Shown: positions 15,930 through 60,080 of the stretch, one piece after another
Position numbering within the stretch: position 1 is the first letter of the stretch
How the letters are laid out: every line of letters begins with the position of its first letter
NCBI GenBank assembly: GCA_964619975.1
Contig: CAZUIY010000341.1
Location: 1,393 to 65,392 of the forward strand
Reading direction: 5' to 3'
DNA from: an uncultured Gemmatimonadales bacterium
Lineage (GTDB): Bacteria > Gemmatimonadota > Gemmatimonadetes > JACCXV01 > JAHWKZ01
DNA length: 64,000 nt
The notes under the pieces: model-generated
Seen by the model: the letters and a program-made list of their open reading frames with translations, nothing else
The model's database searches: none
What the model was told of the DNA's origin: nothing
Translations under genes and position numbers: made by a program

Positions 15930-15979
15930 GCCGTGGCTGACGAGGTTGGGCGGTGGTAACGTGCCGCCGCGTACCCGGT
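15930..15979 (+). promoter_or_regulatory. promoter P0: variant member of the conserved promoter/leader family (-10 TAACGT, leader GTACCCGGT), driving the recT operon
   Basis: TAACGT followed 8 nt later by CGCGTACCCGGTC, then AGGAGG, then TTG start at 16001. Confidence 0.45.
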
Positions 15980-16000
15980 CCCCAGCAGCAGGAGGCAGCG

Positions 16001-17224
16001 TTGAGCGACGAGCAGAAGCAGGATCAGGCACTTGCGGTGGTGGTGGGCGAGCAGCTAGCCCGCCGGCCGGTGATCGAGTTGGTTAACCCGCAGCAGCTGG
16101 CCCTCATCAAGAACCGCGTTGCGCCCAACGCGACTAACGGCGAGGTGGGTCAGTTCCTGGAGCTGTGCGTCGCCTACGGGCTGGACCCCTACGCCGGGGA
16201 GGCGTGGTGCGCGAAGTCGCGCGGTCAGAACGGCGGTGAGGGACGACTGCTGATCATGGTCGGCCGAGACGGCCTTCGCAAGATCGCGCACCGGAACGGC
16301 CTGGACATCGATGGCGACGTGGTGCGCCTGTACGACGACTTCGAGGTGAAGCGCGACCCGAAGACGCGCGAGCGAACGATCCTGCACGCCTACACAGAGG
16401 CGATTCGCGAGGACAGGGCGAAGCGCGATGGCGACCAGACGCCTGAGGCAAGCGCCCGCGGGCCGATCGTCGGGGCGTGGGCCGAGGTTTACGACCAGGC
16501 CGGAAAGCAGCGGGGATACTTCTACGCACCGCTGACGGAGTACCGGCCGACGAACCCGAAGCAGCTCCAGTACAGCCCGTGGGGGTCGCAGGAGTCGGTG
16601 ATGATCCTGGCGGCGGCCGAGCGGCAGGCGCTGCGGCAGGCGACGCCGCTGGGCGGGCTGCTGGCCGAGGGCGAGGACGCGCGGATCGACGAGGGGCCGC
16701 GCATCGAGCCGGCTGACCTGTCGGCCATCGTCAGCAACTTCGTGGAGGACGAGCAGACGCTGCGGTCGGTGGTGGCGGTGATCGAGCGCGCCCGCGCGGT
16801 GGCGCACGGTGGCCTGAGCGACGTGGCGACGATCGAGATGACGCTGACGGGGCAGTCGCAGGAGTTCGTCGACCAGTGGCTGCACGAGGCGGTGCTGGAG
16901 GTCGAGCGCGCGGAGGCGCAGGCGCAGGCGCAGGCGGTCAGCGAGGCGCAGGCCGAGGTCGTGACGGACGCCGAGGTGGTGGGCGAGGGCGGTGACGCGC
17001 CGCCCGAGGACGGCGGCGGCGATTCGGGCGGCGACGAGGACGCGGGGGGCGAGGAGAAGCCCGATCCAACGGCCGTGCTGGAGGGCCAAGCGGCCGACCT
17101 GCGCCTGGACGCCGACGCCGCCGAGGAGGGCGGCGACGCCGACGCCGCCGAGAAGATGCGCGACGACGCGGATCGTCTGGAGTCACAGGCAGCGGAGCTG
17201 CGCGCGGCCGACGCGGAGGAGTAG
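16001..17224 (+). CDS. recT: RecT-family single-strand annealing recombinase
   Basis: Conserved RecT/Red-beta core (GEVGQFLELCVAYGLDPYAGEAWCAKSRGQNGGEGRLLIMVGRDGLRKIA); acidic C-terminus; TTG start 6 nt after AGGAGG. The ORF-track start at 15953 simply reads through the promoter. Confidence 0.8.
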   Translation: MSDEQKQDQALAVVVGEQLARRPVIELVNPQQLALIKNRVAPNATNGEVGQFLELCVAYGLDPYAGEAWCAKSRGQNGGEGRLLIMVGRDGLRKIAHRNGLDIDGDVVRLYDDFEVKRDPKTRERTILHAYTEAIREDRAKRDGDQTPEASARGPIVGAWAEVYDQAGKQRGYFYAPLTEYRPTNPKQLQYSPWGSQESVMILAAAERQALRQATPLGGLLAEGEDARIDEGPRIEPADLSAIVSNFVEDEQTLRSVVAVIERARAVAHGGLSDVATIEMTLTGQSQEFVDQWLHEAVLEVERAEAQAQAQAVSEAQAEVVTDAEVVGEGGDAPPEDGGGDSGGDEDAGGEEKPDPTAVLEGQAADLRLDADAAEEGGDADAAEKMRDDADRLESQAAELRAADAEE

Positions 17225-17228
17225 GCCG

Positions 17229-17432
17229 ATGGCCAGGGAAAGGGCACCACGGCCGCGCCGCCGGGCGTGGCTGGTGGCCCGCGACTCATCGGGCGTAGAG
17301 GCAACGCGCGTGGAGCTCGTGCCGCGCCGGCCGCTGATGTCTCAGCAGGCTCGCCCCGTGCTGGTCGCGGTCGAGGACGCGCTGATCCCGGAGGGAAGCA
17401 TCGTGACCATCGAGCACGAGGCGGGAAGCTGA
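17229..17432 (+). CDS. small hypothetical protein
   Basis: 68-aa ORF between recT and the exonuclease gene, ATGA overlap with the next gene. Confidence 0.3.
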   Translation: MARERAPRPRRRAWLVARDSSGVEATRVELVPRRPLMSQQARPVLVAVEDALIPEGSIVTIEHEAGS

Positions 17433-18628
17433 TGGCGCGCCGCCGCCGGGCGCTGCCCGTCCTCACGCCGGAGGGCGTGGTGGAGGAGTACCCGTCGATC
17501 CGCCAGTCGCGTCTCGGCGACTTCGACAACTGTTCCCTCATGACGAAGTGGACGCTGGAGGGCTACGACTTTACGAATAAGGCGCAGGCACGCGGGATCG
17601 TGTTCCACCGCTTCGCGGCGGAGGTGCTGCGCACGCTGCGGCGACTGGGCGCGACCATGCTGCCGGTCGACCAGGCGCTGGAGATCTTGTACGAGGTGTG
17701 CGCGCAGCGCGACGTGCCGGACGAGGAGGTGGTCGTGCTGCCCGCGGCCGAGCGCCGGCTGCTGCGAATAGCGGCGATCAAGTTCGCCCACGAGAACGAG
17801 TTCAACATGACGAAGCTGATCGACGTCGAGCGGCGCCTGTACGCGACGGTGACCTACCCGGAGCCGGAGACCGGCGTGGCGATCGAGCGCACCATCACGG
17901 GGACGCCGGACGCGATCGTGGCCGACCCGCCCGACGGGGCGGTGGTGCTCGACTGGAAGACCACGCTCCAGCCGCCGCCGCGCTACGGGGGTCAGCAGGA
18001 GGACACCGACTCGGGCGTGTCGTACATGGGGTACTTTCAGCAGCGGTTCTACGCGCTGCTGGTCTTCAAGAACTACCCGTCGGTCCAGACCGTGACGCTG
18101 CGGGAGTTCTATCCACTCGCTGGCGAGGCACGCACGGCGACCGTGCACGTCAACCAGATGGAGCACATAGAGCGAGAGATGGCGGCGCAGGTCGAGCTTC
18201 TGGATCGGGCGCTGGCGGGGGGGTCGGACTCGAAGGTCTGGAAGCCGTCGCCGGGGCGGCACTGCACCTACTGCCCGCGGCCGACGGCGTGCCCAATCGA
18301 GGCGGACGTGAGGGTCTTCGGCGCCGGCGGCGCCGCCACGGCGGGGATCACCTCGCAGGCGCACGCTCAGCGCCTCGCGGCCGAGTACGTGCTGGCCGGC
18401 CGCGTGAAAGAGGTACTGCACGACGGGCTGAAGGGCTGGGTCGAGGTTCACGGCCCGATCCGGGTGAAGTCCGCCAAGGGTCGTTACGAGGTGCGGTGGA
18501 AGGAAACGGGGCGGGGGCGACGCTTCGGCGTGCACGTCCCTGAGGGCTCGACGCGCGGGCCGAAGGACGAGAACCTGGAGGCCGCCTTCGCGGAGGCCGC
18601 CGCGAAAAAGGAGAGAGCGCATGGCTGA
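17432..18628 (+). CDS. PD-(D/E)XK exonuclease, Cas4/RecB-like with Fe-S cysteines (recombination partner of RecT)
   Basis: Nuclease motifs (DAIVADPPDGAVVLDWKTT ... QQRFYALL); Cys pattern of N-terminal C plus C-terminal HCTYCPRPTACP, typical of Cas4-like nucleases; adjacent to recT. Confidence 0.7.
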   Translation: MARRRRALPVLTPEGVVEEYPSIRQSRLGDFDNCSLMTKWTLEGYDFTNKAQARGIVFHRFAAEVLRTLRRLGATMLPVDQALEILYEVCAQRDVPDEEVVVLPAAERRLLRIAAIKFAHENEFNMTKLIDVERRLYATVTYPEPETGVAIERTITGTPDAIVADPPDGAVVLDWKTTLQPPPRYGGQQEDTDSGVSYMGYFQQRFYALLVFKNYPSVQTVTLREFYPLAGEARTATVHVNQMEHIEREMAAQVELLDRALAGGSDSKVWKPSPGRHCTYCPRPTACPIEADVRVFGAGGAATAGITSQAHAQRLAAEYVLAGRVKEVLHDGLKGWVEVHGPIRVKSAKGRYEVRWKETGRGRRFGVHVPEGSTRGPKDENLEAAFAEAAAKKERAHG

Positions 18629-59014: not shown

Positions 59015-59308
59015 GTGACCAGCAGCAGCGTCCAGGTCATGCTGATCTTGGATGGAGTGGACGGAGACGAGGCCCGGCGCGTCTGGCTGCCCGGCGTGCC
59101 GCGCCCCGGCGACCGCCTGGAGCTTGAGGAGGGGGTGGAGGTCGACGGCGCGCCGGAGGGATCGGACGCCGTGATGCTCTGGCGGGTGCGCGCCGTGACC
59201 TACCGCGAGCTGACGATCAGGCGCCCGAGGTACGGGGCCGGCACGAAGATATGGGAGCCGGTGCTGGCCTGCGAGCCGTGGGACGACTTCGAGCACGGGG
59301 CGGGCTGA
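59015..59308 (+). CDS. hypothetical protein
   Basis: 97 aa. Confidence 0.4.
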   Translation: MTSSSVQVMLILDGVDGDEARRVWLPGVPRPGDRLELEEGVEVDGAPEGSDAVMLWRVRAVTYRELTIRRPRYGAGTKIWEPVLACEPWDDFEHGAG

Positions 59309-59469
59309 TGGAGTTCGCGGTGCTGGGGGGCTGGCTGCTGCTGCTGGCGGGTCTCGGCTGGCTGCACCTGGCGCGGGACCTGCCGGGAGGTCGCCCGATC
59401 GGCCTGGTGGCCGTGGCGGTCGCCTCGGTCGTCCTCGCGACGGTGGCGGTCGCGGAGGTGACGGGCTGA
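59308..59469 (+). CDS. small membrane peptide
   Basis: 53 aa; two hydrophobic helices. Confidence 0.3.
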   Translation: MEFAVLGGWLLLLAGLGWLHLARDLPGGRPIGLVAVAVASVVLATVAVAEVTG

Positions 59470-59786
59470 TGCCGCACGAGCGGGTGCTGAACCGCAGGCT
59501 GCGCTCGGCGCGCGGGCGCGGCGTCTACGTGGGGCGACCGACGAAGTGGGGCAACCCGGTCAAGCTTCACAAGGACGATCGCCTGCACCGCGTGGCGTGC
59601 CTGCGCGCGTACGCCTGCTACCTAGACGGGCGCCCGCAGCTGGTCGAGGAGGCGCGCGCCGAGCTGGCGGGGCGGGAGCTGGTGTGCTGGTGCGCGCCGA
59701 AGCTATGCCACGCCGACGTGCTGGCGCGCGTGGTCGACGGCATGACGCCCGCCGAGGCGGTCGAGGACGCGATCGGTCGTGGCTGA
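59469..59786 (+). CDS. DUF4326-family protein
   Basis: VYVGRPTKWGNPV...LVCWCAPKLCHADVL matches the DUF4326 signature (VY.GR...WGNPF ... CWC.P..CH.D.L). Confidence 0.5.
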   Translation: MPHERVLNRRLRSARGRGVYVGRPTKWGNPVKLHKDDRLHRVACLRAYACYLDGRPQLVEEARAELAGRELVCWCAPKLCHADVLARVVDGMTPAEAVEDAIGRG

Positions 59787-60030
59787 GGCGCTGCCACCCG
59801 AGGACCAGCGGCCGCTCCAGCGCGCGCTGGTCGAGCTCCACGAGATGGACTTCGAGGCGGAGATGGCGGCGCTGCCGAGCGGCTGGACCTTGGAGTGGCG
59901 CCGCCGCGGCGCGCGCTGGATCACCCACGCGGCCGATCTCGACGACCTCGGACTGCTGTTGCTGGGCTGGCTCGGCGCGCGCCAGTCGGCCGACGTCGAC
60001 GAGACGGACTACGCCGAGCGCCTGTCGTGA
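59779..60030 (+). CDS. small hypothetical protein
   Basis: 83 aa. Confidence 0.35.
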   Translation: MAEALPPEDQRPLQRALVELHEMDFEAEMAALPSGWTLEWRRRGARWITHAADLDDLGLLLLGWLGARQSADVDETDYAERLS

Positions 60031-60035
60031 GGCCG

Positions 60036-60080
60036 AGGCCGGACTTGGCGCATGAGCGTAGGCTGCCGGGCGTACCCGAT
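60036..60080 (+). promoter_or_regulatory. promoter P19 (-10 TAGGCT, leader GTACCCGATC; weak -35)
   Basis: TAGGCT-7nt-GTACCCGATC; weak SD; GTG 60099. Confidence 0.45.

Follow-up and report, generated by a model that had tools for sequence, protein, structure and literature searches.

An invariant, probably transcribed block at putative promoters of an uncultured high-G+C phage group and a complementary, putatively folded element upstream of recT

Repeated short motifs of actinophages, such as stoperators, start-associated sequences (SAS) and the repeats of Cluster O phages, are known, and their function is mostly unexplained. Here we describe a motif with an unusually clean anatomy in a 64-kb stretch of phage DNA (contig CAZUIY010000341.1, positions 1,393 to 65,392; the whole stretch is called the window in the following). 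A nearly invariant block, (C)GTACCCGA(T), follows the −10 hexamer of 21 putative promoters, and its single inverted copy lies in a predicted RNA fold upstream of recT. No description of this motif was found in the literature by sequence and keyword searches.

The operators and stoperators of Cluster A phages (L5 gp71 type) allow genome-wide control by one factor, and like the block they are short, asymmetric, present in many copies, oriented with transcription, and located in promoters and short intergenic spaces (PMC9283540). The sequence differs, however, and here the site keeps a fixed place at the predicted +1 relative to a −10 hexamer and does not occur in the long structural operon, whereas stoperators also occur away from promoters in long operons; the one promoter-less copy we found is in a relative (L187). 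The block is conserved across very diverged phages, while stoperators diverge with immunity groups. Neither an integrase nor a repressor family was found among the annotated proteins of the window, its helix-turn-helix (HTH) proteins gave no match to the solved Cluster A repressors, and the complementary copy of the block is part of a conserved RNA-like fold. An earlier reading of the window made from the letters alone (the sequence-only reading) had offered an immunity-type operator comparable to stoperators as one explanation, which fits poorly with the conservation across phages and with the failure to find an integrase or Cluster A-type repressor.

The SAS of Cluster K phages, together with their extended form (ESAS), resemble the block in being a repeated asymmetric motif in a single orientation, confined to the non-structural half of the genome and located 5' of gene starts; a role in RNA or translation has been proposed for them (PMC3203893). 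SAS (GGGATAGGAGCCC) contain the Shine-Dalgarno (SD) sequence and lie 3–7 bp from the start codon; the block, in contrast, is promoter-linked and separate from the SD, with 20–31 nt between it and the start codon. Cluster O phages (Corndog) resemble the window in having a Ku gene and an invariant short repeat and in lacking an integrase (none was found in the window), with more than 30 copies of the repeat and SigA-like promoters in Cluster O (PMC4351075). Their 17-bp repeat is a palindrome, though (TGTTCGGNNNCCGAACA), it is not oriented, a third of its copies lie in genes, and it is not tied to promoters (PMC4351075).

In the halovirus HF2, promoter cassettes are repeated as well, with the mapped start inside a conserved block and hence shared transcript 5' ends; mutation of the block abolishes activity, and the repeats are conserved among related viruses (PMC8707807). 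The differences are the archaeal TATA/BRE machinery, the units of 58 and 29 bp in 7+2 copies, and that no complementary partner has been reported (PMC8707807). We regard HF2 as the nearest documented case of repeated viral promoters that start in a conserved block. Many near-identical, co-oriented copies with conservation through +1 into the transcribed bases are also known from T7-type promoters and the early promoters of T4 and T5. T7, however, has a phage-encoded single-subunit polymerase, no such enzyme being recognised here by Pfam, PHROG and PDB sequence searches of the large proteins, and in the window the −10 and −35 hexamers vary like those of ordinary host promoters, only the transcribed block being invariant.

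With regard to the complementary copy, small folded phage RNAs that pair, through a loop or a single-stranded segment, with the untranslated leaders of phage transcripts and stop their expression are known as P4 CI RNA, P1/P7 c4 RNA and lambda OOP RNA. These have one to few targets within one operon, whereas the partner predicted here would match the 5' ends of about 21 independent transcripts. By analogy, RNAs of the P4 CI and P1 c4 type may be considered the nearest analogues of the proposed partner.

Putative promoters with an invariant, probably transcribed block

The 9-mer GTACCCGAT occurs 16 times in the window, 15 times on the plus and once on the minus strand, where 0.21 copies are expected; none of 100 dinucleotide shuffles reached this number, which rules out chance or low complexity as the origin of the motif. 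If the contexts are aligned and the last two block positions are left free, 21 plus-strand sites are obtained between 15971 and 60072. A position weight matrix over positions −14 to +9 returned exactly the same 21 sites above 10 bits and one weak minus-strand match, compared to 0–4 matches in shuffled sequence with both strands summed. The family of sites with a shared architecture, which the sequence-only reading had put at 19 members plus one variant, is real, larger by one site and stronger than had been claimed.

Each site is composed of a TAnnnT −10 hexamer, a spacer, the block, an SD and a start codon. T−13 is present in 16, A−12 in 19 and T−8 in 18 of the 21 sites, CATACT being used at two of them; the hexamers listed earlier were incomplete, since TACGTT, CATACT, TAGCAT, TACGCT, TAGCTT, TAGAGT and TAACGT occur as well. 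The spacer between the −10 hexamer and the G of the block, which had been described as exactly 7 nt, has this length in 18 sites, but is 6 nt long at sites 44243 and 51457 and 8 nt long at P0 (15971), the recT promoter. Instead of TTGCGN at 17–18 bp in at least 12 sites, we count a −35 hexamer of the form TTGC(G/A/C)N in 14 of the 21 sites, 16–18 bp upstream of the −10 hexamer. C occupies −1 in 19 sites, and GTACCCG is invariant. From the G of the block to the start codon the distance is 20–31 nt with a mode of 24; ATG or GTG is generally used, as had been stated, recT with its TTG being different. Block and SD are distinct elements with a gap of 0–11 nt between them. The block holds approximately 18 bits of information, more than the −10 and −35 hexamers.

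All 21 promoter-linked copies lie on the gene strand, and all direct copies in the window are linked to promoters, while the roughly 28-kb structural operon holds none. A site is present in about 20 of some 23 real intergenic gaps located from 23.9 to 60.1 kb, and site 60072 is the sole one ahead of the HNH-terminase late operon. The pattern TTGCN-N16-18-TAnnnT has eight matches in the whole window, compared to 0–2 per strand in shuffles. All eight are on the plus strand and precede the block, and therefore this phage has no consensus-type promoter without it. Scans with Escherichia coli consensus promoters and with terminator models were uninformative at 72% G+C.

Two minor observations concern these sites. 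Five one-mismatch versions of the 9-mer are found within 1.5 kb (61524–62970), on both strands and inside genes 5' of the terminase, and this cluster probably reflects codon composition (CCCGAT). At 44267–44413 and 49748–49849 the cassettes drive open reading frames (ORFs) of 48 and 33 amino acids ahead of longer genes in another frame, the former with a low G+C content at third codon positions (GC3) of 0.75. These short ORFs could be leader peptides, or the first real gene could sit further downstream.

Judged from sequence, the −10/−35 geometry (TAnnnT, and TTGC at 16–18 bp) is that of sigma-A/HrdB-type actinobacterial promoters of the sigma-70 family, which agrees with the sequence-only reading. 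The relatives described below fit this type too, with TAnnnT-type −10 hexamers and with TTGACG-17 in L193 and TTGCGC-16 in L187. In Streptomyces coelicolor, 80% of the mapped starts have TANNNT and 58.6% a −35 motif; 87.9% begin with a purine (+1), 55.5% are preceded by C (−1) and 41% have T as the second base (+2), with no preference outside these three positions (PMC4895711). The block offers C(−1), G(+1) and T(+2), and its G sits 7–9 nt past the last T of the −10 hexamer. As this matches the start context of S. coelicolor, the G is the likely +1, as had been proposed, and transcripts would read 5'-GUACCCGA.

The pairwise identity among the 21 copies is at background outside the promoter hexamers and the block: 0.31 compared to 0.30 expected in the spacer, 0.37 compared to 0.38 in the discriminator, and 0.29 compared to 0.28 after the core. 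It rises to 0.52 in the −10 hexamer and to 0.93 in the block. This difference indicates that the block is kept by selection and not by recent duplication, and it marks the block as a functional element of its own; sites 40115 and 44243 form the only pair that looks recently duplicated. The register between block and −10 hexamer is kept (6–8 nt) though the bases between them are randomised. The block is moreover a module separable from the promoter, because the relative L187 keeps core and SD at position 1394 without a −10 hexamer. This is in line with the earlier claim that its conservation exceeds what a promoter needs.

All 21 leaders are less structured than shuffles (all z-scores above 0, mean +1.2), so that accessibility of the leader tag is predicted. 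The same z-scores, together with inconsistent pairing between core and SD, rule out a conserved hairpin in the leader and sequestration of the SD. An enhancer of translation acting by pairing with rRNA can be discarded as well: in the rRNAs of Streptomyces sp. BHT-5-2 (the host being presumably Streptomyces-like) the longest stretch complementary to the core is 6 nt in 16S, 7 nt in 23S and less than 6 nt in 5S rRNA, and core-rRNA duplex energies are no better than those of shuffled cores. The sequence-only reading had further pointed to GATC in 11 of 19 copies and to the phage's own Dam methylase. The methylase is present (22552–23430, Pfam), and the count is corrected to 12 of 21; a dependence of the block on Dam and GATC is not tenable, with nine sites lacking GATC, 426 GATC in the window and GAG or GAA used by the relatives.

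Related phages and the element upstream of recT

Four metagenomic phage contigs carry the cassette. One of them, L162 (5.7 kb, 75% G+C, with a Mu-type portal), was among the 49 matches of a metagenome pattern scan and has no detected protein or DNA similarity to the window. It contains two complete cassettes 320 bp apart, TTGCGC-18-TACCCT-7-GTACCCGATC-SD-ATG and TATAGT-7-GTACCCGATC-SD-GTG. The other three were fetched by protein homology alone, through homologs of the L162 portal and of the RecT of the window, the motif not being used. L187/L188 is a syntenic 50,988-bp contig (tail, RecT, exonuclease, HTH_36, Ku, C5 methylase), whose RecT is 47% and whose exonuclease is 68% identical to that of the window. 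L189 (73,657 bp, 65% G+C) and L193 (45,716 bp) have RecT proteins that are 42% and 47% identical, respectively.

These three contigs were covered in part (69.8 kb). GTACCCGA occurs 20 times therein, where 1.4 copies are expected and 100 shuffles gave five at most. On the gene strand lie 15 of these cores, and 11 have a −10-like hexamer 6–8 nt upstream; examples are CTTGCG-16-TATAGT-7-GTACCCGATC-AGGAGG-GTG (L187, 762) and TTGACG-17-TATACA-7-GTACCCGATC-AGGAGG-ATG (L193, 21203). Cassettes orthologous to P0 were found upstream of recT in L188, L189 and L193. The core varies only at +8 and +9 (GAT, GAA, GAG), and −1 is always a pyrimidine. The promoter-less core at L187 1394 belongs to the ortholog of the gene at 30145–30795 of the window. 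By comparison, five other RecT loci (85.8 kb) contain four cores, with 1.6 expected, and none in composite form. With composite patterns, IMG/VR and 185,579 species genomes returned singletons at chance level only, and no Streptomyces was among those found with the 18-base composite in the species genomes.

Some of the promoters form a sub-class (class II; 31947–31992, 35454–35499, 40080–40124, 44208–44252 and about 30078–30123) with a common TCGTAGTTCC(TG) between the −35 and −10 hexamers and with −10 hexamers other than TAGSCT. Such spacer elements are phage-specific, namely TCGTAGTTCC in the window, GGATAACGGCGC in L187/L188 and the palindrome ATAGCAnTGCTAT in L193, with the core common to all; they probably serve as operators for regulators of the individual phage or mark temporal classes. 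We further report two observations on other contigs. L129, a metagenome contig with a RecT homolog, has the repeat (A)CCGACCAAGGAG directly 5' of six start codons (6472–9137); the repeat includes the SD, resembles SAS and is not preceded by a fixed −10 hexamer. The homologous Actinomycetota chromosome or metagenome fragments L124, L143, L156 and L157 have TTGCGG-17-TAGGCT-7-GTACCCGATGGCG in common, with ATG only 7 nt from the G. The search pattern itself selected these fragments, and their composite looks like a cellular promoter.

Each genome of which the recT region was available carries one inverted copy of the block upstream of the core of the recT promoter, at a distance of 78 bp in the window, 79 bp in L188, 76 bp in L193 and 93 bp in L189, and GTACCCGATCACG is common to three of the four regions. 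In the window it is the only minus-strand copy and has neither a −10 hexamer nor a start codon; its joint chance is approximately 6e-4, with 29 GGAGG on the minus strand. An "anti-SD" beside this copy seemed significant as evidence, is not conserved in L193 and was not relied on. L189 carries the same variant in its direct cores (GAG) and in its inverted copy (GAGC).

In the window, L188 and L193 the plus strand of the region directly 3' of the last gene of the tail/lysis block, which includes the inverted copy, is predicted to fold independently into the same three-way junction of about 115 nt (z −7.0, −6.8 and −5.5). It is made up of a closing stem of 17–19 bp, a hairpin with a CCAUAC-type loop, a short hairpin and a hairpin CGUGAU...AUCACG, in the loop of which (C)GGGUAC(A), the complement of the leader, is shown. 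In the window this third hairpin, CGUGAUCGG-GUACA-UCGGUCGCG, holds the inverted core. The sequence of the closing (P1) stem is wholly different in each of the three phages, and in a structure-naive alignment (alifold) 10 of 29 pairs have compensatory double changes. Minimum free energies are −80.3, −79.7 and −67.9 kcal/mol for the plus strand of the three phages compared to −73.5, −77.7 and −60.5 kcal/mol for the minus strand; the window element has a z-score of −5.4 on the minus strand compared to −7.0 on the plus strand. The plus strand is the more stable one in all three phages, which would be the expected outcome with G-U pairs contributing to the fold. For duplexes of the window element with the 21 leaders a mean energy of −32.8 kcal/mol is predicted, compared to −18.3 ± 2.8 kcal/mol for random windows, and none of 300 random windows equalled the element. 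The covariance models of Rfam 15 gave no match at the gathering threshold anywhere in the window, including 15812–15928.

The neighbouring recT start allows a further observation. In a read-through RNA the SD of recT (GCAGCAGGAGG, 15985–15995) is predicted to pair with CUUCUUGCUGC at 15921–15931, and the stretch 15805–16030 folds with a z-score of −5.2; recT might thus be translated only from transcripts started at P0. Sequestration of the recT SD in cis by the inverted copy is not predicted.

Possible functions of the block

The explanation we favour, tentatively and at slightly less than even chance, is that the block is a shared 5' tag of the mRNAs and that the folded element is its antisense-loop partner, both serving a coordinate post-transcriptional control. 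Each transcription unit would then have one of the 21 elements, a host sigma-A (HrdB)-type promoter fused to (C)GTACCCGA(T). With the G as transcription start, each phage mRNA would begin with an unstructured 5'-GUACCCGAU, and this tag, 20–31 nt before the start codon, would be read at the RNA level as a signal in cis. The partner would be a folded plus-strand RNA from the end of the late (tail/lysis) block, just 5' of recT, whose third hairpin presents (C)GGGUAC for pairing of the loop with the 5' ends. Such pairing may control all tagged messages together, via translation or stability, and early messages could for example be shut off once late transcription reaches the element. Among the options of the sequence-only reading, an RNA 5'-end signal has gained most support, as the block begins at the predicted +1 and the genomes keep a complementary sequence, in three of them within the loop of the predicted fold.

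The broader claim, that in an uncultured group of high-G+C actinophages one invariant leader GUACCCGA on essentially all mRNAs and one antisense-loop three-way-junction RNA form a genome-wide RNA-RNA switch, is possible, though we hold it with more doubt. One regulator would face about 20 independent transcripts and might, at a given point of infection, silence or stabilise all messages that carry the tag, or it might distinguish phage from host messages. If true, the switch would add a novel means by which a virus governs or labels its entire transcriptome, and in a bacterial virus it would parallel the leader that coronavirus or trypanosome mRNAs have in common. Should the RNA-RNA explanation fail, the block would still be a compact, portable and strongly selected promoter-proximal module for high-G+C hosts, of practical interest for Streptomyces expression tools, and it sets apart a group of phages of which GenBank contains no cultured member.

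Several points weigh against the favoured explanation. The start site, the making of the element RNA, the pairing and the regulatory outcome are all predictions. The fold is based on three or four sequences, which are too few for a statistical test of covariation, and L189 has the inverted copy but no significant fold with the boundaries tried (z 0.1). In the window the stem of the third hairpin extends, leaving only GUACA in the loop. The SD complement beside the inverted copy is not conserved in L193, and consequently the pairing may be limited to 7–10 nt. A simple early shutoff is complicated by the tag at the late-operon promoter (60072), and the core at L187 1394 would not lie at a 5' end unless the RNA is processed. 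Furthermore, where comparable repeated phage motifs have been established by experiment, they have mostly proved to be sites bound by proteins on DNA.

One alternative is that the block is the asymmetric site of one DNA-binding protein, either conserved and phage-encoded or a host factor, which at +1 to +9 would block or gate RNA polymerase at every phage promoter; promoter-less copies would act like stoperators and the inverted copy as an auxiliary site. A 10-bp asymmetric site of about 18 bits, co-oriented with transcription and in a typical repressor position, would suit such a protein, as would the promoter-less copy of L187 and the several multi-domain DNA binders encoded by the phage, and the monomeric Cluster A repressor on asymmetric 13-mers at promoters and intergenic sites is a precedent (PMC9283540). 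The joint change of direct and inverted copies in L189 also fits a protein of altered specificity. An operator, however, needs neither a block edge at the predicted +1 nor a register with the −10 hexamer fixed within 1 nt, and while immunity operators diverge quickly, the block is kept across phages whose proteins are 42–68% identical. No regulator of the window is detectably shared with the fetched parts of the relatives, which adds to the lack of an integrase and of a protein like the solved Cluster A repressors noted above. A site on double-stranded DNA also leaves unexplained why the inverted copy is in the loop of a co-varying, strand-biased fold. We therefore consider an operator unlikely, though a serious competitor. 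More improbable appears an intrinsic initiator, i.e. that the host RNA polymerase itself reads the block as an initially transcribed element, with no dedicated trans factor, through start-site choice, open-complex stability or promoter escape behind the GC-rich discriminators, the block being kept for very strong promoters. It begins at a preferred Y(−1) R(+1) Y(+2), keeps its register with the −10 hexamer and is common to phages whose host polymerases are probably related; conservation of transcribed regions is also known from T5 and T7 promoters. A start mapped inside a conserved repeat block whose mutation abolishes activity has its precedent in HF2 (PMC8707807). Nine invariant positions nevertheless far exceed what bacterial RNA polymerase is known to read past +2, conservation of the block exceeds that of both promoter hexamers while S. 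coelicolor preferences concern −1, +1 and +2 only, and the 18-base composite is found as chance singletons only among the 185,579 species genomes, none of them Streptomyces. Neither the promoter-less copy nor the conserved inverted copy in a fold would be explained.

The sequence-only reading had named the fusion protein at 39277–40095 as a further possible reader of the block, and its sigma70_r2 and FtsK_gamma domains are confirmed by Pfam. The protein has a true region 2 signature of the extracytoplasmic function (ECF) sigma factors (DAEDAVQEAW...ARSRAIDAHRRR), one HNH_repeat and a winged HTH. Its loose relatives combine sigma2, HTH and one or more HNH_repeats, and the fusion as such is a singleton whose homologs do not exceed about 38% identity. 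The block could be part of a promoter recognised by this protein or by an unrecognised phage RNA polymerase; besides the region 2 signature, CGTA, which we take to resemble ECF −10 motifs, and the existence of large unannotated proteins (e.g. 56388–58559) speak for it. We consider this very improbable: the positions of an ECF −35 motif (−24 to −18) carry almost no information, T−13, A−12 and T−8 with TTGC or TTGACG at 16–18 bp are classic sigma-A features in the relatives too, and alignment shows that the fusion protein lacks the sigma4-like HTH of its relatives. No homolog of it was detected in the fetched parts of the phages sharing the block, and Pfam, PHROG and PDB sequence searches of the large proteins, several of which remain unannotated, gave no RNA polymerase family. 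On sequence grounds the protein is a candidate DNA binder that is not tied to the motif. Least credible of all is that the cassettes are a recently spread mobile promoter, and the block conserved by descent only. In T4-like phages the mobile promoter early stem-loop (PeSL) cassettes couple an early promoter to a conserved stem-loop, and hitch-hiking of this or a moron-like type would agree with many cassettes preceding single small orphan genes, with those of L162 and L187 located before small genes inserted after the portal gene, and with the recent duplicate pair 40115 and 44243. The 64 nt 5' of the −35 position, however, have a mean z-score of 0.07 with hairpins at few sites, and a PeSL-like upstream stem-loop was rejected on this basis. 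Spacer, discriminator and post-core sequence at background identity next to a core at 0.93, and conservation of the block between phages without detectable DNA similarity, also disagree with mere descent.

Genome context and coordinates

The window has 72% G+C, and nearly all coding sequence is on the plus strand. Tail genes with a tape measure gene and an endolysin gene (14642–15775) are followed by 44 kb of non-structural genes and, from 60.5 kb, by genes for an HNH endonuclease and the large terminase. The non-structural genes encode RecT, a PD-(D/E)XK exonuclease, an HTH_36 protein, a zinc-finger protein, a Ku-like protein, the D12-class (Dam-type) methylase mentioned above, a C5 methylase, a DnaQ-like exonuclease and a DUF5131 protein. 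The window covers 64 kb of a source contig of 72,337 bp. Proteins of this contig are singletons at 90% identity, and no close relatives were found among GenBank phages, IMG/VR and PLSDB, nor a cultured relative in GenBank. Streptomyces "plasmids" that share a Gp37/Gp68 gene were considered as relatives and turned out to be ordinary plasmids. We infer a Streptomyces-like host because the G+C content is high, L187 encodes a transglycosylase domain of the Rpf type, and short stretches of DNA match Streptomyces plasmids. Coordinates are collected in Table 1.

Table 1. Cassettes and associated features of the window. Cassettes are given as −35 hexamer, spacing, −10 hexamer, spacing (nt) and core.
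Feature	Position	Strand	Composition or evidence	Start codon and remarks
Inverted leader copy	15876–15893 (9-mer 15885–15893)	−	minus GTACCCGATCACGGAGG, plus CCTCCGTGATCGGGTAC	antisense to core
Putative three-way-junction element, ~115 nt	15812–15928	+		between endolysin gene and recT promoter
P0, recT promoter	15950–15980	+	TAACGT-8-GTACCCGGTC (variant core)	TTG 16001
Cassette	23913–23935	+	TATAGT-7-GTACCCGATC	ATG 23955
Cassette	27425–27471	+	TTGCGG-18-TAGCCT-7-GTACCCGATT	GTG 27486 (C5 DNA methylase gene)
Cassette	29599–29644	+	TTGCAC-17-TACGTT-7-GTACCCGATC	GTG 29657
Cassette	30078–30123	+	TTGCGA-17-CATACT-7-GTACCCGATC	ATG 30145
Cassette	30887–30933	+	TTGCCC-18-TAGCAT-7-GTACCCGATC	ATG 30949
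Cassette, class II spacer TCGTAGTTCG	31947–31992	+	TTGCGC-17-TACGCT-7-GTACCCGATC	ATG 32007
Cassette	32236–32282	+	TTGCAT-18-TAGCTT-7-GTACCCGACC	GTG 32296
Cassette	33509–33554	+	TTGCGC-17-TAGCCT-7-GTACCCGATT	ATG 33571
Cassette, class II spacer TCGTAGTTCC	35454–35499	+	TTGCGA-17-CATACT-7-GTACCCGATC	ATG 35514
Cassette, class II	40080–40124	+	TTGCGT-16-TATTAT-7-GTACCCGATC	GTG 40139; leader identical to site 44243
Cassette, class II	44208–44252	+	TTGCGA-17-TACGAT-6-GTACCCGATC	GTG 44267 (48-aa ORF)
Cassette without −35 hexamer	46154–46176	+	TAGCCT-7-GTACCCGAGC	ATG 46191
Cassette without −35 hexamer	46419–46441	+	TAGGCT-7-GTACCCGATC	ATG 46456
Cassette without −35 hexamer	49714–49736	+	TAGGCT-7-GTACCCGACG	ATG 49748 (33-aa ORF)
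Cassette, overlaps end of upstream gene	51445–51466	+	TACGCT-6-GTACCCGACG	GTG 51483
Cassette, SD abuts core	51994–52039	+	TTGCGC-17-TAGCCT-7-GTACCCGATA	ATG 52050
Cassette	54592–54637	+	TTGCGA-17-TAGCCT-7-GTACCCGATC	ATG 54651
Cassette	56132–56177	+	TTGCGG-17-TAGCAT-7-GTACCCGATC	ATG 56194
Cassette	58955–59001	+	TTGCCG-18-TAGAGT-7-GTACCCGACG	GTG 59015
Cassette without −35 hexamer, late operon	60059–60081	+	TAGGCT-7-GTACCCGATC	GTG 60099
ECF-type sigma region 2, HNH_repeat and FtsK-gamma winged-HTH protein	39277–40095	+	Pfam, profile search, alignment	

Some features of the gene content can be added. The Ku-like protein adjoins the RecT/exonuclease pair in all members of the group (24404–25363 in the window, 9298–10326 in L188, 16479–17390 in L193 and from 12149 in L189), and its occurrence without an integrase in the window is reminiscent of the Ku-encoding mycobacteriophages Corndog and Omega. 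The C5 cytosine methylase (27486–29387) has 633 amino acids, of which only about the first 210 form the methylase domain; its GC3 of 0.74 is below that of the neighbouring genes, and no other protein is as well conserved between the window and the 51-kb relative, whose counterpart is 75% identical. A stretch of lower G+C content (11551–14604; 62% compared to 72%) separates the tail genes from the endolysin gene and contains three ORFs of 669, 126 and 220 amino acids with no match in Pfam or PHROG, which may be horizontally acquired receptor-binding or lysis genes. Finally, a perfect 11-bp G+C hairpin (GCGGCCGCCCC...GGGGCGGCCGC, 20069–20098) is located in the 155-bp gap before the HTH_36 gene, a gap that holds no copy of the motif; this hairpin may be a terminator or a protein site.

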